Source: Candidatus Polarisedimenticolia bacterium (GTDB lineage: Bacteria > Chloroflexota > Limnocylindria > Limnocylindrales > CSP1-4). Taken from it: DNA of 64,000 nt. Both the position numbers and the translations under genes were made by a program. Every line of letters begins with the position of its first letter. The stretch's first letter is position 1. Below, piece by piece: positions 2,420 to 10,708 of the stretch. The notes below the pieces were generated by a model. That model saw nothing but the letters and a program-made list of their open reading frames with translations, had not been told where the DNA came from and did not search any database. The stretch covers positions 1,021 through 65,020 of the forward strand of contig DASRJS010000109.1 of the NCBI GenBank assembly GCA_035649355.1, in the 5' to 3' direction.

Positions 2420-2859
2420 CCGATGCGCTTGCGCAGGTAGGCCGTGACCGCTCCGTCGTAGCCGAGCGCCTCGTACAGCTGGCGCGCCTCCGGCCGGTGA
2501 TGGCCGGCCGTGATCTCGACGAACGCCGCTTGGTGCTCGCGTCCGAACGACTCGGCCTCGGCCATCAGGCGATGGCCAACGCCGCGTTCGCGGGCGCCCG
2601 CGTCGACGACGACGGCGAGCACGCGGACGAAGCGATCGTCGTGCTCGAAGCGGGGTACGGCGTGAACGGCGATGAAGCCGATCACCTCACCGGCCTGCTC
2701 CGCGACGATGACCGCGGCGTCGGGATCGTCGAAGCGCGCGAGGCGCGAGGCGACGTCCGTCGGGCCGACCGGATAGCCCTCATCGGTCAGGAGCTCGGCG
2801 ATGCGGCCTGCGTCCGTCGCGGCTGCGGCCCGCAGCGTCAGGGCCTCCGAGCTGATCAC
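2416..2859 (-). CDS. GNAT family N-acetyltransferase
   Basis: 147 aa protein with an acetyl-CoA-binding-type motif (RERGVGHRLM). It overlaps the upstream ABC gene start by 4 nt. Confidence 0.7.
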   Translation of the reverse strand: MISSEALTLRAAAATDAGRIAELLTDEGYPVGPTDVASRLARFDDPDAAVIVAEQAGEVIGFIAVHAVPRFEHDDRFVRVLAVVVDAGARERGVGHRLMAEAESFGREHQAAFVEITAGHHRPEARQLYEALGYDGAVTAYLRKRIG

Positions 2860-3383
2860 GCGGTCATGGTAGCGCCGGGCGCCGTCAGCACGAGATGCGG
2901 GCCCCAGGCGCGTCCGCCGAGGACGACCCGCTCGGTCCCGAACGGACCCCGGCCGACAGCGGACAGGACGAGGCCACCGAGGTTCGCCCGCGCGAGCAGC
3001 CGCGTGTCGTCGAGTCCGGGCGCGACCCAGGCGACCGCAACACCCTCGCCGCGCCGTGCCAGAGCTGCGGCGAGGCGGCCCTCGGTCGTCGGCTCGAGCA
3101 GGACCAGCGCCGGACCGTCGTCATCGCGTTCGAGGCGGAGGCAGCGGGCGCCGAGTGGCCCTTCTGCGGGCATCGCAACGGGCTCCTCCTCGGGCAGCCC
3201 GAGGACCCGCCGCAACTCCCCAGCCGCGCGATCAGCATCGACCGTCGCCCAGCCGATCGCATGCAGCTCGATCGTCTCCGGTTCGCCGCGCAGCTTGAGC
3301 CGGCGCGCCGGGGCGGCAATGGCGAGCGCCTCAGCGACGAGCGCATCGAACGCCGCGCCGTCGCTCACTCGACCTCCGTTCAC
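2856..3383 (-). CDS. hypothetical protein
   Basis: Ala/Leu/Gly-rich 175 aa ORF. Its start and stop overlap the neighbouring genes by 4 nt. The alternative-frame ORFs in the same span are Arg-rich artefacts. Confidence 0.45.
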   Translation of the reverse strand: MNGGRVSDGAAFDALVAEALAIAAPARRLKLRGEPETIELHAIGWATVDADRAAGELRRVLGLPEEEPVAMPAEGPLGARCLRLERDDDGPALVLLEPTTEGRLAAALARRGEGVAVAWVAPGLDDTRLLARANLGGLVLSAVGRGPFGTERVVLGGRAWGPHLVLTAPGATMTA

Positions 3384-3394
3384 TCGGCCGCCGC

Positions 3395-4231
3395 TCAGCG
3401 CTGCAGGAGGGCGGTCACGCCGCCGTCCGCGAACGCGTAGCCGAGCCGCTCGTAGAGATGGCGCGCAGCGTCGTTGCCGTCCTCGACACCGAGGAAGATC
3501 GTCTCGCTGCCGGCCGCGAGCGCATCGTGCGTCGCCGCGGACGTGACCAGCCGGCCGAAGCCCCGCGTCCGGTATCCGCGGCGTGTTCCGATCGCGGCGA
3601 GGAGCGACGCCCGGCCGTCCGTCGTGCGGCGAGCAACCGCAACGGCCTCACCCTCGACCCGCACGAGGACGAAGCTGATCGCCGGGACCTCGAGCATCTC
3701 GACGACGTCCGCTTCGATGAGGACGTGGAAGGCCGGATCGAGCTCGAACGCGTCGGCGATCACGGCCGCCACGTCGCGTGCGGCGCGAAGGCGATCAGGC
3801 GTGGTCATGTCGACCCGTTCGACGGCGACACCGTTCGCCGTGCCCACGGACGCCGCGAGCTCGAGCGCCGAACGGTCATCCAGGTACATGTATCGGCTTG
3901 CGCCAACCTGGCCGAATCCGGCCCGCTCGATGCCGGCGATCCGGGCGTCGTCGAACGGCGCGGTCAGCCAGAGGTGCGGCCGCCGGGCGATGCGATCGAA
4001 GACCTCGCGAACCGCCCGCAGCCAGTCGTCGATATCGGTGTCCGCGTCGGGCAGGACGGGATCGACGAGCCTGTTGAAGACCGGCTCGTGATCGTCCGGA
4101 TCGTGGACGAGCCAGCCGCCGAGGACCTCGCGGATCGTGCGCCGCGGCCAGCGATGGGCACGCGCCTCGAGCGCCAGGAGCGTCCCGACCCGGAGGCGTC
4201 CGGCTCGTCCGTGAAGGCCCATCGGGCGCAC
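3395..4231 (-). CDS. GNAT family N-acetyltransferase (two-lobed, MshD-like size)
   Basis: 278 aa protein. The C-terminal half has the GNAT motif RRGYRTRGFGRLV...LGVEDGNDAARHLYERLGY. Confidence 0.65.
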   Translation of the reverse strand: MRPMGLHGRAGRLRVGTLLALEARAHRWPRRTIREVLGGWLVHDPDDHEPVFNRLVDPVLPDADTDIDDWLRAVREVFDRIARRPHLWLTAPFDDARIAGIERAGFGQVGASRYMYLDDRSALELAASVGTANGVAVERVDMTTPDRLRAARDVAAVIADAFELDPAFHVLIEADVVEMLEVPAISFVLVRVEGEAVAVARRTTDGRASLLAAIGTRRGYRTRGFGRLVTSAATHDALAAGSETIFLGVEDGNDAARHLYERLGYAFADGGVTALLQR

Positions 4232-4344
4232 GATACCCGCCGCCCGTTCGAAGGCCCTCCGAAAATCCGCTCACCCGGTGAGCGCGTATTGTTCCCCGGA
4301 TCCAGGGCGAAGATGTCCCCGTGACGCCTGAGGAGGTGCGACTC

Positions 4345-4770
4345 GTGTTCCGACGACTCCCTGCCGCGGCCCTTGCGCTCGCCGTCTCGATGGTCCTCGC
4401 CGCCTGCGGCGGAGCCACGAGCCAGGCGCCGTCCACCGGTCCGAGCTCTGAACCGAGCGCGGCGGCCAGCCAGGGCGGCCCGGTCGCGTGTGAGCAGGCG
4501 GCTGCCGACGCCGACTTCGCGGGCAGCGTCTCGATCAAGGACTTCACCATGGACCCGACGACCGTGACGATCAAGGTCGACGAGGCCGTGGCCTGGACGA
4601 ACAACGATTCGGCGTCGCACACCGCGACGATGGACGACGTCGACTGCTCGACCGACAGCATCGCCAACGGCACGACCGCGAAGCTCGTGTTCCACGTCGC
4701 CGGCACGTACAAGTACCACTGCCGGATCCACTCCGCGATGACCGGCTTCACGGTCGAGGTCACGCCCTAG
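4345..4770 (+). CDS. cupredoxin (plastocyanin/amicyanin-like blue copper) lipoprotein
   Basis: Copper ligands of the HCxxH...M type are present (YKYHCRIHSAMTG). A lipobox LAACGG follows the signal peptide. AGGAGG lies 8 nt upstream of the GTG at 4345. The track ORF starts at 4321. Confidence 0.75.
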   Translation: MFRRLPAAALALAVSMVLAACGGATSQAPSTGPSSEPSAAASQGGPVACEQAAADADFAGSVSIKDFTMDPTTVTIKVDEAVAWTNNDSASHTATMDDVDCSTDSIANGTTAKLVFHVAGTYKYHCRIHSAMTGFTVEVTP

Positions 4771-4851
4771 TCCAAACGCTGCCGGGCAGCCGCGCCCGGC
4801 CCTCGCGCCGGGCACCAGGTCCGGCGACGTGCAACCCTTCAGCCGGACTCC

Positions 4852-5475
4852 GTGTTGAAGGGATCGATGGACGCCGACGTCGACCTCGCCAAGCGCCTTG
4901 CCCGTGACCTCGACGGCTCGTTCGAGGCCCTTGTGGTGGCCCACCAGGACCGCCTGTTCACGATCGCCCGGCGGCTGCTCGGCGATGCCCATGACGCCGA
5001 AGAGGTGGCGCAGGACGCGTTCGTCCGGGCCTACCGGGCGATCGAGGGCTACCCGCCCGAGCGTGTCCGCGAGCTGCGGCTGCGACCGTGGCTCGCCGCG
5101 ATCGTCGTGAACCTCGCCCGAAACCGCCGCCGGCGCGTCGCTGACCGCCAGCCAGCCTCGCCGCTGACGCCGCTGCTCGAGAACGGCCTCGACCTCGAGG
5201 ACCAGGCTTCGGCCCGACCCGAGGCGCGTCACGCGACCGCCGAGTCGCGCCGCGAGTGGTCCGCCCGGCTCGCGGCGTTGCCGGTCGCCTACCGCACAGC
5301 GGTCGTCCTCCGCCACGTCGACGGGCTGAGCTACGACGAGCTCGCCGTGGCTCTCGGGCGTCCCGAGGGCACCGTCAAAGCCCAGGTCCATCGCGGCCTG
5401 CGGCTCCTGCGCGCCGCGCTCGACGCCGAAGCCACCACCGACCGCCATTCGAACCACACGGAGATGTCCGCATGA
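4852..5475 (+). CDS. RNA polymerase ECF-type sigma-70 factor
   Basis: Region 2 and region 4 are recognisable (LSYDELAVALGRPEGTVKAQVHRGLRLLR). The true start may be the internal ATG at 4867. Confidence 0.85.
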   Translation: MLKGSMDADVDLAKRLARDLDGSFEALVVAHQDRLFTIARRLLGDAHDAEEVAQDAFVRAYRAIEGYPPERVRELRLRPWLAAIVVNLARNRRRRVADRQPASPLTPLLENGLDLEDQASARPEARHATAESRREWSARLAALPVAYRTAVVLRHVDGLSYDELAVALGRPEGTVKAQVHRGLRLLRAALDAEATTDRHSNHTEMSA

Positions 5476-6272
5476 CCACGCCCCTCTCGCCCGATCGACT
5501 CGCCGAGCTTGCCGAGCTCGATGACCATGCCCCGGCCGGCCTGCGACCGGACGTCCTCGTCGCCGTCGGGCTTGCCGACCGCTACGCCCCGATCCCAACG
5601 CCGCTGGGTGAGCTCCACGTCGCCTGGAACGGCCGTGGCGTCTCGTGGCTCGGCAGTGCCGACCGCGATGACTTCGAGGCCGGCTTCCATCGCACGATCC
5701 GGCGCCCGCTGGAGCCCGTCGATCGCGTGCCGGATCGGCTCGGTGAAGCGATCGAGCGGCGAATCGAGGGCGACCGGCGTGTCCGGATCGACCTCGACCT
5801 TCGCGGCCGGACGCCGTTCGAGGTCGCCGTCTGGCACAAGGCGCTCGAGATCCCGCGCGGCGAGGTCCGGCCGTACGGCTGGGTTGCCTCCGAGATCGGG
5901 CGGCCACGGGCCGTCCGGGCCGTCGGCTCCGCGCTCGCCCACAACCCGGTGCCGCTCGTCGTGCCGTGCCATCGCGTCGTTCGGTCGGATGGCTCGATCG
6001 GCCAGTACTCGCTCGGCGGCCCAGATTCGAAGCTGAAGATGCTGACGTTCGAGGGCCTCGCGCCGCTCGAGCTCGAGGCCGCCGCGCGAACCGGGGAGCG
6101 GTTCCTCGGCTCGGACACGACGCACATCGTCTGCCTGCCGAGCTGCCACAACGCGCGGCGCATCACGCCGCGCCACCGCGTGCCGTTCCGATCGCTGGCG
6201 GCCGCGGAGGCCGCTGGCTACCGCCCATGCCGCGAATGCCGGCCGGCGTCGGGGGCGACGCTCGTCGCCTGA
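5472..6272 (+). CDS. ogt: methylated-DNA--protein-cysteine methyltransferase (Ogt) fused to a C-terminal Ada-type Cys4 zinc domain
   Basis: The MGMT active site PCHRVV and the N-terminal MGMT domain TPLGELHVAWNGRGVSWLG are present. The C-terminal 45 aa contain CLPSCH...(26)...CRECRP, matching Ada CRPSCP...CKRCQP. The ATGA start overlaps the sigma factor stop. Confidence 0.8.
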   Translation: MTTPLSPDRLAELAELDDHAPAGLRPDVLVAVGLADRYAPIPTPLGELHVAWNGRGVSWLGSADRDDFEAGFHRTIRRPLEPVDRVPDRLGEAIERRIEGDRRVRIDLDLRGRTPFEVAVWHKALEIPRGEVRPYGWVASEIGRPRAVRAVGSALAHNPVPLVVPCHRVVRSDGSIGQYSLGGPDSKLKMLTFEGLAPLELEAAARTGERFLGSDTTHIVCLPSCHNARRITPRHRVPFRSLAAAEAAGYRPCRECRPASGATLVA

Positions 6273-6364
6273 GATCGGCGGGCCTCATCCGCCGCCACCA
6301 AAGCGCAACCTTTGGCCTACTGGACTAGGCCATCGGGGTTCGCTAGACTCCAGCGAAACGCCGC

Positions 6365-7363
6365 TTGGACCAGCAGGGTATGCCAAAAAGTTCCGCCGTT
6401 TCCAGCTCGCGTCTCTGGCTCGCGCTCCTGACGATCTATGTCATCTGGGGCTCGACCTACCTCGGCATCGCCATCGCGATCCAGTCGGTCGAGCCGTTCA
6501 CGCAGGGTGCGATCCGGTTCACGATCGCCGGCCTGGTGCTGCTCGCGTGGGCCCGGCTGCGCGGCGGCGCAAACGTTCGCATGCCAACGCGGCGCGAGTG
6601 GCGCGACGCCCTGATCATCGGCGGGCTCCTGTTCGGAGGCGGCAACGGCCTCGTCGGCTGGGGCGAGCAGACTGTGCCGTCCGGGATCGCCGCGCTCCTG
6701 ATCGCCCTCGTCGCTGTCTGGTTCGCGGTGTTCAGCCGAATCTTCTATGGCGATCGGATCCCGTTGATCGTGGGAATCGGGATCGCGGTCGGCATCGCCG
6801 GTGTGGCGCTCCTCGTCTGGCCGTTCGGGTCGACCGCGACCTTCGACGGTCCCGGGATCCTGGCCCTCATCGGCTCGCCGATCTGCTGGGCCAGCGGCTC
6901 GATCTTCGCGGCACGCCGCGCGAAGATGCCCGCGAACCCGATGGTCGCGACCGCGTCCCAGATGCTCGCCGGCGGGCTGTCACTCGGGCTCCTGGGGCTC
7001 GTGACCGGCGAGGCCGGCCGGTTCAGCCTGGAGATCTCGACGGCGTCGCTGCTGGCGATCGGCTATCTCCTGGTCTTCGGCAGCCTCGTCGCGTTCTCGG
7101 CCTACAGCTGGCTCCTGCGCCACGCGCCGCTGCCGCTGATCGGCACGTATGCCTTCGTCAATCCGATCGTCGCCGTCGCGCTTGGATCGATCTTCCTGTC
7201 CGAGCCGATCACGCCGCGGATGCTCCTGGCGGCCGCGGTGATCGTCGTGGGCGTCGCGCTCGTGATCCTCGGCCGCTCGAGACTTCGGGCCGCCAGCATC
7301 GCGGCAACGGCGGCGCCCGTCGGACCGACGAAGCTGAGCGCGGCGATCTCCGACCCAGGCTGA
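6365..7363 (+). CDS. EamA/DMT family drug-metabolite transporter
   Basis: Ten predicted TM helices in the two-EamA-repeat architecture. Confidence 0.8.
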   Translation: MDQQGMPKSSAVSSSRLWLALLTIYVIWGSTYLGIAIAIQSVEPFTQGAIRFTIAGLVLLAWARLRGGANVRMPTRREWRDALIIGGLLFGGGNGLVGWGEQTVPSGIAALLIALVAVWFAVFSRIFYGDRIPLIVGIGIAVGIAGVALLVWPFGSTATFDGPGILALIGSPICWASGSIFAARRAKMPANPMVATASQMLAGGLSLGLLGLVTGEAGRFSLEISTASLLAIGYLLVFGSLVAFSAYSWLLRHAPLPLIGTYAFVNPIVAVALGSIFLSEPITPRMLLAAAVIVVGVALVILGRSRLRAASIAATAAPVGPTKLSAAISDPG

Positions 7364-7371
7364 CTGGGGGC

Positions 7372-9441
7372 TTAGCCCTCGGCGAGGATCGTCCTGGAGA
7401 CCCGTCGCGCCATCGCCATCACGGTGAGCATCGGGTTGACGCCGAGCCCGGTCGGGAACGTCGAGGTGTCGGCGACGTAGAGGCCCGGAACCACCGCCCC
7501 GCCCGTATCGCGACGGACGTGGCCGCGTTCGTCCGCGGCGTGATCCCGGGCCGATGCGCCCATCCGAAGGCTGCCCATCTGGTGGGCCGAGAAGACCGTC
7601 CCGCGATTCGGTCCGAAGTCGAACGATGCCAGGCCATCGACGAAGGCTTCGAACGCCCGCTCCGCGCTCGAGCCATGGGCCCGGGCATCGAAGAACGCGC
7701 CCGGGGCCCCGAGGGCGAGGATCTCGTTCGCGCCGGCGGCTCGGGCCAGGCGCGCCTCCGTCTGGAGCGCATGGCGCAGGGTCGCGATCCCGCGTCGGTC
7801 AAGGCGGTAGTCGAGGCGGACGCGGCCGGCCCGAGTCAGTCGAACCGTGCCCTCGCCGCCGTCCCGCGTCACGGCGATGAACGGCCCGAACGTGCGGGCC
7901 CGGCTCATGAGCTCGCCGTGCCGCGCGCGCCCGGTCCACGGCAGCGCGAGCGCGATCAGGCCGGGATGGCCCGGCGCCGATTCGATGACGTACCCGTTCC
8001 GGTTCGTGTCGCCCGTGACGAACTGAATCGAGCGAACCGACTGGAGCGGGCCCCGCCAGGCGTCGATGGACTCGTCGAACATGCCCGCGACGACGGGCAC
8101 GGGATGAATCCTCAGGTGGCGCCCGGCCGCCGGGTGGCTGAAGCCGCTGGCTTCGACGATTGCGGGCGTCCGAAGGGCGCCCGCGGTCAGGACGACCTGC
8201 TCGGCTCGGACCTCGATCGGCCGCGTCCGGACCTCGACGGACCCCGGGGCGAGCGGGATCGGCTCGCCCGCCTCGCCGACGACGACCGCGAGCCCGGCGA
8301 CGCCCACGGCACGGCCGCCCTCCACGAGCACCCGCAGGACGCGGACCCGCGGCACGATCCGCGCCCCGGCAGCGTGCGCACGCGCGAGATGGACACGCAG
8401 CCCGGATCGTTTCGAGCCGCGCCGGCAGCCGAACGAGCAGGTCCCGCAGTCATCGCATGGACCGCCGTCCCGCATCGTGGAACCCGCCTCCCAGCCGAGG
8501 ACCGCGGAGCCGCGGACGATCGCGGAATCCTTCGGCGGGATCGGCGCGGAGGGCTGGATCGCGAGCTCGCCGGACACCGTCGCGATGTCCGCATCCCACT
8601 CCGCGCCATCGAAACCGTCGAGCCCGTGCTCGGTCGCCCACTCGCGGCGGACCTCGAGCGGCGCATCGATGCTCGTCATCCAGTTCACCAGCGTGCCGCC
8701 GCCCACGCCGCTGCCCGCGAGCAGCGTCACGGAGCCATCCCACGTGGAGAGCAGGCCGCGGTTGAGATAGAGGCGGATGTAGCCGTCGAGCTCGTCGCTT
8801 GGCATCGAGGCCTCGTTGACGAACGGCCCGGCCTCGAGGACGACGACGGACCGCCCGGCCTCCGCGAGCGCCGCCGCGACGACACCGCCGCCAGCGCCCG
8901 ATCCGACGATGACGACGTCGGCGTCGAGCGAGATCGGTCCCTGATCCACGTCCGAGGCGCGCGCGACGATCGTCGGCTCGATCGGCGTCAGCTCCGAGGT
9001 CACCGGCGGCTCGTCCCGGACGTAGCCCATGCCCGCGAGAAGCGGATTGGCGCCGGATTCGCCAGGATCGGCGTAGGCGATGGATGTGAGGAGCTTTCGG
9101 TACGCGTGAGCGCCGGCGCGGAGGACGCCGATCGGCGAACCGAGCCAGCCACGGAGCACGGCCTCGCGTGCGCTGATCGGGAGGTTCGCGAACGCCCGAG
9201 GGCGGCCGGTCAGGAGCAGCGTCCCGAGCCGCGTGCCGAGCAGCCGCAGGACGAGCCTGAACTGCGCCAGCTGCGTTGGGTCGAGTCCCCGAACGGCCGC
9301 TTCAGCGGCGAGGTTGACCCGCCGTTCGATGACGTCGGGCGTGCCCTCGACGAACGTTTCAGCGAGCGCCGCCAGCGCGCGTCGTTCGCGGCGACTCCAG
9401 CCAGTCGGTGGGGTGGCGCGCGGGCCGGGCCGGATGGTCAT
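7372..9441 (-). CDS. GMC family FAD-dependent oxidoreductase (long-chain alcohol oxidase-like)
   Basis: FAD-binding GSGAGGGVVAAALAEAG is present. A C-terminal GMC His/Asn region and a long N-terminal extension match fatty alcohol oxidases. Confidence 0.8.
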   Translation of the reverse strand: MTIRPGPRATPPTGWSRRERRALAALAETFVEGTPDVIERRVNLAAEAAVRGLDPTQLAQFRLVLRLLGTRLGTLLLTGRPRAFANLPISAREAVLRGWLGSPIGVLRAGAHAYRKLLTSIAYADPGESGANPLLAGMGYVRDEPPVTSELTPIEPTIVARASDVDQGPISLDADVVIVGSGAGGGVVAAALAEAGRSVVVLEAGPFVNEASMPSDELDGYIRLYLNRGLLSTWDGSVTLLAGSGVGGGTLVNWMTSIDAPLEVRREWATEHGLDGFDGAEWDADIATVSGELAIQPSAPIPPKDSAIVRGSAVLGWEAGSTMRDGGPCDDCGTCSFGCRRGSKRSGLRVHLARAHAAGARIVPRVRVLRVLVEGGRAVGVAGLAVVVGEAGEPIPLAPGSVEVRTRPIEVRAEQVVLTAGALRTPAIVEASGFSHPAAGRHLRIHPVPVVAGMFDESIDAWRGPLQSVRSIQFVTGDTNRNGYVIESAPGHPGLIALALPWTGRARHGELMSRARTFGPFIAVTRDGGEGTVRLTRAGRVRLDYRLDRRGIATLRHALQTEARLARAAGANEILALGAPGAFFDARAHGSSAERAFEAFVDGLASFDFGPNRGTVFSAHQMGSLRMGASARDHAADERGHVRRDTGGAVVPGLYVADTSTFPTGLGVNPMLTVMAMARRVSRTILAEG

Positions 9442-9472
9442 CGGGCGGCCGGCCTTCGAGCGGGCTGGTCGA

Positions 9473-10708
9473 TCAGCCGCGGAGGGCGGCGGCGGACCCG
9501 GCAGGCAGCCGTTCGAAGCCCTGCGCCGGCAGCGGCTCGCAGCGGATCGGCCGGTCCTCGCGATAGCCCAGCGCGTAGTCGGCCTGGATCAGCGTGTGCA
9601 GCTGGCTCGTGCCCTCGTAGATGACCGCCGCCTTCGAGTTGCGCAGGTAGCGTTCGACCGGGAACTCGTTCGAGTACCCGTTCGCCCCGTGGACCTGGAT
9701 CGCATCGAGCGCGCTCGCGACCGCGTGATCCGTCGCGTGCCACTTCGCGAGCGAGGTTTCGCGGGTATTTCGAACCCCGTGGTTCTTCAGCCAGCCGGCG
9801 CGCCAGGTCAGCAGACGGCCCGCTTCGATGCCCGCCGCCATCTTCGCGATCATCTGCTTGACGAGCTGGTGCTCGCCGATCTCGACGTCGAACGTCTTGC
9901 GCTCGTGGGCGTACTTCACCGATGCATCGAGGCAGGCCTGTGCGAGGCCAACGTTCCCCGCGGCAACCGTGTAGCGGCCCTGGTCGATCGCGCTCATCGC
10001 GATGAGGAAGCCCTCGCCCTCTTCGCCGATCCGGTTCTCGAGCGGGACCCGGACGTTGTCCATGTTGATGATCCCGGTGTTCCCGGCATGGATCCCGAGC
10101 TTGCCGTGGAGCGTCCCGGTCGAAAGGCCCGCCATCCCGCGCTCGAGCACGAAGGCGGTGACGCCCTTGTGCTTCTTCGACCGGTCGACCGAGGCGAAGA
10201 CGAGGAACTGGTCCGCGATGTCGGCGAGGCTGATCCAGATCTTCTGGCCGTTGAGGACGTACGAGTCACCGTCCCGGCGCGCGGTCGAAGCGAGGTTCCC
10301 GGCGTCTGTGCCCACGCCCGGCTCGGTCAAACCGAAGGTCGCGAGCTTCTCGCCCTTCGCCTGGGGGACGAGCCAGCGCTCCTTCTGCTCGTCGGTGCCC
10401 CACTGCATGAGCGTCAGCGAGTTCAGTCCGACGTGGACGCTCTGGACGACGCGAAACGCGGTATCGCCCTTCTCGAGCTCCTCGCACAGGATCGCGAAGC
10501 TGATGTAGTCCATGCCCGAGCCGCCCCAGCGCTCCCAGACCGGCGCGCCGAGGAACCCGAGCTCGGCCATCTTCTCGAAGACCTCGCGGTGGACCTCGCC
10601 CTTGGCGTCCCACTCCCGGATGTGGGGCTTGATCTCGGCGTCAACGAAGGAACGGGCGCTGTCGCGGACGAGCCTGTTCTCGTCGGTCAGCGTGAAGTCG
10701 ATGGGCAT
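9473..10708 (-). CDS. acyl-CoA dehydrogenase
   Basis: ACAD N, middle and C domains are recognisable (YALGYRE...; QVHGANGYSNEFPVERYLRNSK). Confidence 0.9.
   Translation of the reverse strand: MPIDFTLTDENRLVRDSARSFVDAEIKPHIREWDAKGEVHREVFEKMAELGFLGAPVWERWGGSGMDYISFAILCEELEKGDTAFRVVQSVHVGLNSLTLMQWGTDEQKERWLVPQAKGEKLATFGLTEPGVGTDAGNLASTARRDGDSYVLNGQKIWISLADIADQFLVFASVDRSKKHKGVTAFVLERGMAGLSTGTLHGKLGIHAGNTGIINMDNVRVPLENRIGEEGEGFLIAMSAIDQGRYTVAAGNVGLAQACLDASVKYAHERKTFDVEIGEHQLVKQMIAKMAAGIEAGRLLTWRAGWLKNHGVRNTRETSLAKWHATDHAVASALDAIQVHGANGYSNEFPVERYLRNSKAAVIYEGTSQLHTLIQADYALGYREDRPIRCEPLPAQGFERLPAGSAAALRG

Follow-up and report, generated by a model that had tools for sequence, protein, structure and literature searches.

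The locus consists of an ECF sigma factor gene and, overlapping its stop codon, a gene for an O6-alkylguanine-DNA alkyltransferase that carries an Ada-type zinc domain at its C terminus (5472-6272, + strand, 266 aa; hereafter the partner). We call the whole stretch of DNA analysed, 64,000 nucleotides long, the 64-kb window, and positions are counted from its first letter. The features discussed below are:

4831-4856, + strand: predicted autoregulatory ECF-type promoter GCAAC-N18-GTT (-35 at 4831-4835, -10 at 4854-4856)
4867-5475, + strand: ECF sigma factor gene, 202 aa, with regions 2 and 4 and without region 3
5461-5464, + strand: putative GGAG Shine-Dalgarno of the partner gene, 7 nt before ATG 5472
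5472-5475, + strand: ATGA start/stop overlap of sigma and partner, 4 nt, within ...GCATGA...
5472-5576, + strand: N-terminal extension (partner residues 1-35), putative remnant of anti-sigma-domain helices III-IV
5577-6059, + strand: two-domain O6-alkylguanine-DNA alkyltransferase (partner residues 36-196)
6090-6245, + strand: N-Ada-type Zn(Cys)4 domain (partner residues 207-258)
6365-7363, + strand: EamA/DMT transporter gene (PF00892), 92 nt 3′ of the partner

The sigma open reading frame matches Sigma70_r2 (PF04542, 2.5e-16) and Sigma70_r4_2 (PF08281, 3.2e-15) in Pfam and passes the NCBIfam model TIGR02937 for sigma70-ECF (82.9 bits, cutoff 42.9). It reaches no equivalog cutoff among the NCBIfam models (SigE, SigW, RpoE and others). 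The frame opens mechanically at GTG 4852, a codon within the promoter; comparison with the homologous loci shows that the homologous start is a different one. A preliminary description of this DNA had hinted at a shorter sigma factor, and the predicted start at ATG 4867 is indeed well supported: the promoter keeps a fixed distance to it, three homologous loci (L003, L004 and L007) have in-frame stops two codons 5′ of the sigma ATG, and a database protein of 202 aa (P0277) is 100% identical to the sigma factor read from ATG 4867.

This ATG stands 10 nt past the GTT of the GCAAC-N18-GTT element, a distance of 9-11 nt across homologous loci. Based on the 22 loci fetched for the partner gene (the genome set, in which L014 comes without upstream sequence), the element is found at the same distance from sigma in 21-22 of 22 loci, and again in 14 class-A metagenome loci. 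For example, Streptomyces sp. NBC_00503 has GCAAC-N18-GTT-N9-ATG and Rubrobacter has GAAAC-N18-GTT 5′ of sigma; the Actinomadura loci likewise carry the promoter element before sigma. The window element resembles the GGAAC/T-N18-GTT style that is typical of actinobacterial SigR/SigH/SigE-type sigma factors.

The promoter had previously been given as AAC-N16-CGT at 4833-4853. This assignment does not hold, as AAC (4833-4835) and CGT (4851-4853) are separated by 15 nt and not 16, and the -10 was mis-assigned: the CGT positions vary among loci and the conserved element is GCAAC-N18-GTT. The autoregulation suggested along with it is strengthened by the conserved promoter at a fixed distance 5′ of the sigma start. 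Transcription of the sigma and partner operon from GCAAC-N18-GTT is well supported by this conservation, and the sigma factor that uses the promoter would be the operon's own. Because GTT ends 10 nt before ATG 4867, the transcript is predicted to be leaderless or nearly so.

The exact element occurs once in the 64-kb window, compared to 0.55 occurrences expected. A second copy is absent from the window and from the 4 kb on either side of 21 loci, bar one match within the sigma gene of L013 that is probably due to chance; no wider regulon is therefore documented. Across the homologous loci we saw no Ada-box-like or other conserved extra DNA element beside the promoter.

The junction of the two genes is equally constrained. 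It reads ATGA or GTGA in 22/22 loci of the genome set, most metagenome loci have a -4 overlap, and the sequence ...ATGACCGCATGA... is conserved among homologous loci. The GGAG before the partner start sits in the codons of a conserved E-M-(S/T)-A at the sigma C terminus and would act as the Shine-Dalgarno of the partner. With the 4-nt overlap and with domain matches on both open reading frames, the early reading of an ECF sigma factor tied to an Ogt-Ada(Zn) gene stands; judging from the arrangement of the two frames, sigma and partner are translationally coupled.

The central part of the partner matches PF01035 (residues 115-195, 5e-29) in Pfam and TIGR00589 (90.9 bits, cutoff 46.4). Its PCHRVV motif at residues 165-170 holds the predicted acceptor Cys166 (codon 5967-5969). 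The homologue alignment shows a conservation of 90% or more for each of Y135, R149 (the Arg finger), N158, P165-C166-H167-R168 and E194. The AF2 model of the partner (pLDDT 94.9) resembles E. coli C-Ada (1sfe, TMt 0.80) and M. tuberculosis OGT (4wx9, TMt 0.76) in Foldseek. These family matches, the conserved catalytic residues and the two-domain MGMT fold confirm the view that the protein is a complete O6-alkylguanine-DNA alkyltransferase with PCHRVV, and the alignment indicates that it keeps every catalytic residue of such an enzyme.

The C-terminal part matches Ada_Zn_binding (PF02805, residues 207-258, 1.3e-10, 41.6 bits for a cutoff of 23). Aligned by phmmer with the N-Ada structures 1adn and 1u8b in the PDB, its cysteines correspond one by one to those of Ada (C221=C38, C225=C42, C253=C69, C256=C72). 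Cys221 (codon 6132-6134) thus corresponds to Cys38 of E. coli Ada, which accepts the methyl group of methylphosphotriesters. In Foldseek, the zinc domain of the AF2 model superposes on methylated N-Ada (1u8b_A) with an rmsd of 1.8 Å over 51 columns at 39% identity. The HMM and the structure comparison with the Ada N-terminal domain, both proposed in the preliminary description, therefore agree, and the likeness of the Cys4 module to N-Ada that it had drawn holds for the fold and for all four cysteines. Its boundaries (residues 225-267) do not hold: the module begins before residue 225, because the cysteines are 221/225/253/256. Loss of the cysteine cluster in orthologues had been named as a ground for refutation; each zinc cysteine is at least 90% conserved and PF02805 is present in 59/60 diverse homologues.

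No AraC or HTH domain is found in the partner with Pfam, and the score against the full-length Ada equivalog NF011964 (108.6 bits) stays below the cutoff of 345. The picture of a reversed, minimal Ada arrangement without the AraC domain is thus upheld, with MGMT first, the zinc domain last and no HTH_AraC match. Both methyl-acceptor sites are predicted to be competent, based on alignment and model.

We then considered how widespread the pair is. Informative loci were the 21 genome loci with upstream sequence together with 29 metagenome genes having at least 500 nt upstream. An ECF sigma gene lies directly 5′ of the MGMT-AdaZn gene in 50/50 of them, usually with the 4-nt overlap; it is immediately upstream and on the same strand in 21/21 genome loci, and upstream in 29/29 metagenome loci. 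The 50 paired loci stem from Chloroflexota (Limnocylindria), Actinomadura and metagenomes, and annotated Rubrobacter and Streptomyces plasmid records contain the same pair. Its flanking genes differ among Actinomadura, Rubrobacter and Streptomyces. Phylogenetic profiling had been suggested early on, with the possibility that the pairing is unique to one genome; these 50 loci and the additional records show that it is not. Cultured carriers include Actinomadura sp. DC4, Rubrobacter radiotolerans, Streptomyces sp. NBC_00503 and Nonomuraea gerenzanensis.

At 50% identity, partners with E <= 1e-30 form around 200 clusters. Distances between sigma factors and distances between partners are correlated (r = 0.89 over 55 pairs, Mantel 0/1000). 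Sigma-coupled relatives without the AdaZn domain also exist (classes B and D, 10 loci).

The neighbours of the pair vary. In 8 loci the partner is followed directly by a PF09859 2OG-Fe(II) DNA-repair oxygenase, L047 has Tag downstream and Streptomyces has a separate Ogt there. In Streptomyces sp. NBC_00503, which has this separate Ogt, the Arg-finger region of the partner is diverged. In the window the next gene is EamA, and the 92-nt gap before it contains neither a promoter motif of its own nor a U-tract terminator; co-transcription with sigma and partner is possible. EamA is downstream in 19 Limnocylindria-type loci and absent from this position in Actinomadura, Rubrobacter and Streptomyces. 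Because the synteny is confined to Limnocylindria, we rejected EamA as core of the module, and it probably lies outside it.

The first 35 residues of the partner are absent from ordinary Ogt. In the AF2 model they form two short helices (7-15 and 24-31), with the motif L..L...AP..L....L...GL.D, and their conservation (0.52) equals that of the MGMT N-domain. The length of this region follows the linkage to sigma: sigma-linked MGMT genes have 146-220 residues before PCHR compared to 121-149 for the Ogt-sized ones among 13 sigma-less MGMT genes, the rest of which are other N-terminal fusions.

Relatives of the partner suggest what the extension derives from. A zinc anti-sigma domain (zf-HC2, PF13490) forms the N terminus, followed by the same MGMT(-AdaZn) body, in 7/60 diverse homologues of the alignment set, and zf-HC2 is found as well in L023, L051, L065, L066, L069, L076, L078, L085, L086, L094 and L097. 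These forms are sigma-coupled too (L023, L051, L066, L069, L078, L085, L086, L094 and others). The N-terminal profile of the relatives matches the anti-sigma structures RslA (3hug_B, 2.6e-6) and RsiW (5wuq_C, 3.9e-6), and further DdvA, RsrA and ChrR.

The window-type extension aligns after the HxxxCxxC of the ZAS-bearing homologues. In hhalign it matches the anti-sigma-domain profile with 94.9% probability when the MGMT start is included, and with 50.5% (E 1.6e-4, only 29 columns) when the MGMT part is trimmed off, the register being unchanged. Residues 1-35 of the window partner contain no PF13490, no other Pfam anti-sigma domain and no H/C motif, and helices I-II are missing. For the N-termini of class E the match to the same profile is weak (probability 8-11%) and we claim no homology.

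The statement that the alkyltransferase is encoded "instead of an anti-sigma factor" is thus misleading. Because relatives carry zf-HC2 and the window protein keeps a putative remnant, the partner is best read as the anti-sigma factor of its coupled sigma, which it would bind. A conventional anti-sigma factor elsewhere had been raised as an objection; within the 64-kb window there is no HxxxCxxC (ZAS-type) open reading frame, nor is there a second sigma of the same type or a second MGMT.

Four database proteins (P0251, P0271, P0272 and P0274) that join sigma and MGMT were rejected as natural fusions, as frameshift junk lies between or inside their domains. One of them, P0271 (sigma region 2, frameshift junk and partner), was modelled by AF2 as a single chain. 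The model, which includes the junk, has a pTM of 0.53; its N-terminal helices were predicted no more confidently (pLDDT 56-75) and it shows no confident docking.

Taken together, we propose that sigma and partner form a self-activating sigma/anti-sigma module of two genes, whose anti-sigma factor is itself a suicide acceptor of DNA alkylation. We give this reading a probability of roughly 55%; binding of sigma by the partner and alkylation-triggered release are the steps that we infer. Control of the ECF sigma by irreversible cysteine methylation had already been put forward as a hypothesis in the preliminary description. A fuller version goes further and, to our mind, falls somewhat short of an even chance. 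There, the DNA-repair event itself would free sigma: a "consumption-sensing" anti-sigma factor would irreversibly take over an alkyl group from O6-alkylguanine or methylphosphotriester. Chloroflexota and Actinomycetota would then widely possess an adaptive response to alkylation that is based on sigma and independent of Ada. It would come in modular forms, in which the zinc anti-sigma domain, the Ada zinc domain and an AlkB-like oxygenase are each present or absent, and these forms would trace an anti-sigma domain whittled down to two helices.

In an undamaged cell, the partner would keep sigma inactive through its N-terminal helices. Once DNA is alkylated, it would irreversibly accept alkyl groups on Cys166 (from O6-alkylguanine) and/or on Cys221 (from methylphosphotriesters, or from SN2 agents directly). 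The spent partner would change conformation or be degraded, sigma would be released and the free sigma would transcribe its own operon. Consumed partner would thereby be replaced one-for-one with new sigma, until unalkylated partner exceeds sigma again. In other lineages the operon would also supply an AlkB-like dioxygenase, Tag or a second Ogt. The whole would amount to an Ada-type adaptive response with an ECF sigma factor as output in place of the AraC DNA-binding domain. Precedents exist: Ada is switched irreversibly in transcription by methylation of its Cys38, alkylated AGT/MGMT is destabilised, and ChrR and RsrA are cytoplasmic anti-sigma factors with sensor modules.

The alternative that survives best, though we consider it rather unlikely, is that the partner is the principal target of the sigma factor and not its regulator. 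Sigma would then be controlled elsewhere (by an unlinked anti-sigma factor, by proteolysis or through transcription only), the overlap would ensure that repair protein is made along with sigma, and the extension would be of use to the enzyme itself, perhaps for binding DNA or for oligomerisation. Translational coupling, co-divergence and the autoregulated promoter are also expected under such an arrangement; operon partners co-diverge as well. It would also fit the window partner having no Pfam-recognisable anti-sigma domain, and the junk-containing P0271 model having given no confident sigma docking. Such an ECF group is moreover listed as "without cognate anti-sigma" in the literature, where the portion describing it leaves the MGMT neighbour as regulator or target. 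Nonetheless, in relatives a genuine zinc anti-sigma domain is joined to the same MGMT body, in the same position and beside a similar sigma, and the N-terminal extension is confined to sigma-linked MGMTs. Among the loci compared, no further candidate regulator is shared between phyla, and a sigma factor that activates its own gene would run in a positive loop without check if no inhibitor were linked to it.

Could the partner instead be a positive co-factor? In such a scheme, methylation of the zinc-bound cysteine raises DNA affinity and the partner stays on sigma or RNA polymerase, where it recruits or stabilises the holoenzyme; sensor and sigma would be the two subunits of a split Ada-like activator. 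The N-Ada zinc domain is complete, coupled 1:1 synthesis would suit a stable heterodimer and E. coli Ada is a precedent: Cys38 methylation acts as an electrostatic switch that raises DNA binding, and methylated Ada activates transcription via contacts with sigma70 region 4 or the alpha-CTD. We regard this possibility as improbable. The zinc domain cannot be the universal link to sigma because classes B and D do without it, the domain common to the N-termini of the relatives is an inhibitory anti-sigma domain, and the promoter has no Ada-box-like conserved element beside it.

A signal other than DNA alkylation, with the Zn(Cys)4 or the active-site thiolate as a general electrophile or oxidant sensor and the MGMT fold as a scaffold, is more improbable still: Zn-thiolate anti-sigma factors such as RsrA and RslA commonly sense thiol-reactive stress, and the Arg-finger divergence and separate Ogt of NBC_00503 hint that the partner is more sensor than enzyme in some lineages, but in the window lineage Y135, R149, N158, PCHR and E194 are all conserved, which argues for real DNA-lesion chemistry, and the linked genes, where present, encode alkylation-repair enzymes.

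If the sigma/anti-sigma module that we favour is correct, a large uncharacterised set of ECF sigma factors gains a defined signal and mechanism. Their partners at present carry no annotation beyond "methylated-DNA--protein-cysteine methyltransferase" or "Ada metal-binding domain-containing protein". The partner would be the first anti-sigma factor with a suicide DNA-repair enzyme as its sensor, and it would explain the induction of alkylation repair in phyla without canonical Ada. The module would also offer synthetic biology a compact, orthogonal and alkylation-inducible set of sigma, anti-sigma and promoter.

The closest published counterpart is the group ECF122 (Casas-Pastor et al. 2021), described as having no canonical anti-sigma factor and a conserved 6-O-methylguanine DNA methyltransferase neighbour, with an actinobacterial example in Cellulomonas sp. 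Root930 (PMC8999054). By description, the window sigma is like ECF122 in its adjoining MGMT (PF01035) gene and in the absence of a canonical anti-sigma factor. The passage of PMC8999054 on the group makes no mention of an Ada zinc domain, an N-terminal anti-sigma remnant or a promoter. The ECF122-MGMT association as such is already noted in the literature, uncharacterised in that passage. A literature search, with the ECF Hub supplements outside its reach, found no experimental paper on a sigma/MGMT pair.

Among characterised systems, RsrA-SigR, ChrR-RpoE, RslA-SigL and RsiW share with the window pair a soluble, cytoplasmic partner whose gene is co-transcribed directly 3′ of an autoregulated ECF sigma, and it is RslA, RsiW, RsrA and ChrR that the N-terminal domain of the relatives matches. 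ChrR, the partner of RpoE, also carries a C-terminal module, a cupin. Unlike these zinc anti-sigma factors, the window partner is without helices I-II and without the zinc site HxxxCxxC. The sensor proposed for it is a suicide DNA-repair enzyme with a second, unrelated C-terminal Zn(Cys)4, and the proposed signal is irreversible S-alkylation compared to reversible oxidation.

Ada modules are known to be shuffled in Gram-positive lineages, as in AdaA/AdaB of B. subtilis and AdaA-AlkA plus Ogt of M. tuberculosis. Unlike the window pair, the AdaA/AdaB and AdaA-AlkA systems keep an AraC-type DNA-binding domain on the zinc domain. To our knowledge, none of the split or rearranged Ada systems has a sigma factor as output, and the Ada response is so far known to us only with an AraC-type DNA-binding output.

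E. coli Ada, composed of the N-Ada Zn(Cys)4 domain, an AraC-type HTH and the C-Ada MGMT, is the textbook protein made into a transcription factor by irreversible methylation. The window pair has both of its irreversible methyl-acceptor modules and, as in Ada, the acceptor is encoded in an operon predicted to be autoregulated. It differs in the reversed order of these modules in the partner, in having no AraC/HTH domain and in leaving promoter recognition to a separate, coupled ECF sigma factor.

We found that the ECF sigma factor gene is translationally coupled to a partner gene whose 266-aa product looks like an anti-sigma factor. The features of the region, in window positions, are as follows.

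4321-4770, plus strand: cupredoxin/plastocyanin-like protein with an N-terminal signal and a lipobox-like LAACGG
4831-4856, plus strand: ECF-type promoter GCAAC-N18-GTT, conserved upstream of the sigma gene in homologous loci
GTG 4852 or ATG 4867 to stop 5475, plus strand: sigma ORF with Sigma70_r2 and Sigma70_r4_2, passing the sigma70-ECF superfamily model
5461-5464, plus strand: partner Shine-Dalgarno GGAG, inside conserved E-M-S/T-A codons at the sigma 3' end
5472-6272, plus strand: MGMT-AdaZn partner, with PF01035 at residues 115-195 (PCHRVV at 165-170) and PF02805 Ada_Zn_binding at residues 207-258 (domain search)
6365-7363, plus strand: EamA/DMT transporter 3' of the partner, kept in around 19 Limnocylindria-type loci
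7372-9441, minus strand: GMC-family oxidoreductase convergent with EamA, kept in around 10 Limnocylindria-type loci

The sigma product reached no named equivalog model in the family-model search. The preliminary description hinted at a shorter sigma factor, and the homologous start is indeed ATG 4867: in-frame stops lie two codons 5' of the homologous ATG in three aligned loci (L003, L004 and L007), the 202-aa database protein P0277 is identical to the sigma read from this ATG, and GTG 4852 falls within the -10 region of the promoter. The sigma stop and the partner ATG overlap as GC-ATGA (5472-5475). Very long antisense or out-of-frame ORFs (3964-5907 on the minus strand and others in 2497-9624, e.g. 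of 647 and 1025 aa) overlap the real genes and have a composition dominated by Arg, Pro, Gly and Ala; they are artefacts of the kind usual in 70% GC DNA.

The possibility that the pairing is unique to one genome no longer holds. A genome scan yielded 20 loci, from Limnocylindria/Chloroflexota MAGs and Actinomadura sp. DC4, and look-ups added two further contigs. A homologous ECF sigma gene lies directly upstream of the partner in all 21 genome loci with upstream sequence, and the junction is an ATGA or GTGA overlap in 22 of 22, window counted. A metagenome scan with the family alignment provided 80 more diverse loci, in which an ECF sigma is found upstream of 29/29 MGMT-AdaZn genes with at least 500 nt of upstream sequence, mostly with an overlap of -4. 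As a control, 13 sigma-less MGMT genes from the same scan are Ogt-sized (121-149 residues before PCHR) or other fusions; in the sigma-linked proteins, 146-220 residues precede PCHR, which means an N-terminal extension. Annotated records also contain the pair in three further cultured organisms: Rubrobacter radiotolerans, on plasmid 2 ('RNA polymerase sigma factor' and 'methylated-DNA--[protein]-cysteine S-methyltransferase'), Streptomyces sp. NBC_00503 (sigma, 'Ada metal-binding domain-containing protein' and a separate Ogt) and Nonomuraea gerenzanensis. Sigma and partner distances are correlated (r = 0.89, 55 pairs, Mantel 0/1000), which fits a co-inherited, co-evolving pair; contact does not follow from r. 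Four database proteins resembling Rosetta-stone sigma-MGMT fusions (P0251, P0271, P0272 and P0274) are actually frameshifted read-throughs of the ATGA junction carrying out-of-frame Arg/Pro-rich junk.

In start-codon-aligned upstream regions, GCAAC-N18-GTT is invariant in 22/22 genome loci, and its GTT stops 9-11 nt short of the ATG. Another 14 metagenome loci with the window's partner architecture (class A) share the motif, which recurs as GCAAC-N18-GTT-N9-ATG in Streptomyces and as GAAAC-N18-GTT in Rubrobacter. The exact motif occurs once in the 64 kb window versus 0.55 expected. A second exact copy in one related locus (L013, 3658-3683), inside the sigma coding region, is probably due to chance. 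These data replace the AAC-N16-CGT promoter proposed from the sequence: AAC (4833-4835) and CGT (4851-4853) are separated by 15 nt, not 16, the CGT positions differ from locus to locus, and GTT at 4854-4856 is the -10 element that is conserved. Given that the aligned upstream regions contain no conserved Shine-Dalgarno before the sigma ATG and that the promoter-ATG distance is fixed at 10 nt, we infer that the sigma mRNA is leaderless or nearly so.

The partner is, as first described, an Ogt-Ada(Zn) fusion: the domain search found no AraC/HTH domain in its 266 aa, and its score of 108.6 bits with the full-length Ada model, below the cutoff of 345, shows that it is not Ada itself. Its C221, C225, C253 and C256 align with E. 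coli Ada C38, C42, C69 and C72 (phmmer against PDB), bearing out the suggested match to the N-Ada zinc site. In a very confident AF2 model (MSA of 60 homologues; pLDDT 94.9, pTM 0.88), two short N-terminal helices (7-15 and 24-31) precede an MGMT fold of two domains and a C-terminal domain resembling N-Ada. Foldseek matches it to C-Ada (1sfe, TMt 0.80), to the OGT of M. tuberculosis (TMt 0.76) and, with an rmsd of 1.8 A over 51 columns, to methylated N-Ada/DNA (1u8b). The Cys cluster is conserved: across 60 diverse homologues, C166, the four zinc Cys and the MGMT catalytic residues Y135, R149, N158, H167, R168 and E194 are each at least 90% conserved, and PF02805 is present in 59.

Seven of the 60 homologues are longer, with an N-terminal PF13490 zf-HC2 domain (C...HxxxCxxC), and such forms are also translationally coupled to an ECF sigma (loci L023, L051, L066, L069, L078, L085, L086, L094 and others). 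A profile of their N-termini matches the solved anti-sigma factors RslA (3hug_B, 2.6e-6) and RsiW (5wuq_C, 3.9e-6), as well as DdvA, RsrA and ChrR. Five partner architectures adjoin a sigma.

Class A: short extension, MGMT and AdaZn (window type)
Class B: short extension and MGMT
Class C: zf-HC2, MGMT and AdaZn
Class D: zf-HC2 and MGMT
Class E: another N-terminus of about 85 residues, MGMT C-domain and AdaZn

Residues 9-35 of the window partner (RLAELAEL..APAGLRPDVLVAVGL) align with the post-CxxC segment of the zinc forms, which corresponds to the end of helix III and helix IV of the anti-sigma domain. With hhalign, the window-type extension matches the zinc forms with 94.9% probability when the MGMT domain start is included and 50.5% when it is trimmed off (E 1.6e-4, 29 columns), in unchanged register. 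The extension has a conservation of 0.52 versus 0.53 for the MGMT N-domain, and L13, L16, A20, P21, L29, G33 and D36 are each found in at least 80% of 56 sequences. AF2 on P0271, a stand-in for the sigma-partner complex in whose ORF sigma region 4 is destroyed, gave a pTM of 0.53 and left the confidence of the N-terminal helices no higher, a result that weighs neither for nor against docking. Because HxxxCxxC and helices I-II are absent from the window partner, we do not file it as a member of the zinc anti-sigma domain family; we propose that its extension acts like a truncated anti-sigma domain.

Neighbouring genes differ from phylum to phylum, the conserved unit therefore being the two-gene module. 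Actinomadura, Rubrobacter and Streptomyces lack the EamA and GMC synteny. Inspection of the gap between partner and EamA revealed no U-tract terminator, so co-transcription of the two is possible. A GC-rich hairpin without U-tract (GGCGG-N7-CCGCC, 6276-6292) is located 3 nt past the partner stop. On the other side, 60 nt separate the end of the cupredoxin-like gene from the sigma promoter, and in 8 related loci homologues of this gene also lie upstream of the module. In other lineages, a PF09859 2OG-Fe(II) oxygenase, annotated by Pfam as acting on damaged DNA, is a candidate third operon member: this AlkB-like 'Oxygenase-NA' gene is immediately 3' of the partner in 8 loci (class A: L031, at 1024-1752, and L032; class E: L053, L054, L059, L060, L067 and L077), sometimes overlapping it. 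In one metagenome locus (L047, 3880-4497), the next gene 3' of the pair encodes Tag, 3-methyladenine DNA glycosylase I (PF03352). In the Streptomyces sp. NBC_00503 plasmid locus (L107, 2282-4284), the pair is followed directly by a second, stand-alone Ogt of 190 aa. The partner there keeps PCHR and the four zinc Cys, but its RAVG Arg-finger region has diverged (ALDGIAG), and in this lineage it may act mainly as a sensor and less as a repair enzyme.

The module is conserved, translationally coupled and autoregulated, where we infer the use of the promoter by the sigma, and the partner combines two intact irreversible alkyl-acceptor sites with an N-terminal extension positionally homologous to an anti-sigma domain. 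Ada is switched irreversibly by methylation of its Cys38 and is also activated when SN2 agents methylate it directly; alkylation destabilises AGT, and both RsrA and ChrR act as sensor anti-sigmas in the cytoplasm. Partly based on these precedents, we favour, at roughly 55% probability, a model in which the unalkylated partner would sequester the sigma. Once an alkyl group is transferred to Cys166 and/or Cys221, the partner would be inactivated or destabilised and would free the sigma, which would re-express the operon and replace the spent suicide protein; the loop would close once fresh partner exceeds sigma. We consider it unlikely that the partner is a mere target gene of the sigma. A role as methylation-dependent co-activator seems more doubtful still, and a thiol sensor for a signal other than alkylation is the least probable reading.

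The association of an ECF sigma with MGMT is already known. In the part of a review of non-canonical ECFs that concerns ECF122 (PMC8999054), this group is described, with an example from Cellulomonas, as having no cognate anti-sigma factor, 6-O-methylguanine DNA methyltransferase as conserved neighbour and an unknown mechanism. Casas-Pastor et al. emphasise that neighbours of this kind can be either regulators or targets. Our literature search found no experimental work on the pair and no mention of the Ada Zn fusion, the anti-sigma remnant, the zf-HC2-MGMT fusions or the promoter. Compared with this known group, the Chloroflexota MGMT-AdaZn form, the evidence for an MGMT protein as anti-sigma factor, the promoter and the linked repair genes appear to be new; sequestration by the partner with release on alkylation, if true, would be a new regulatory mechanism, and one that is readily testable.
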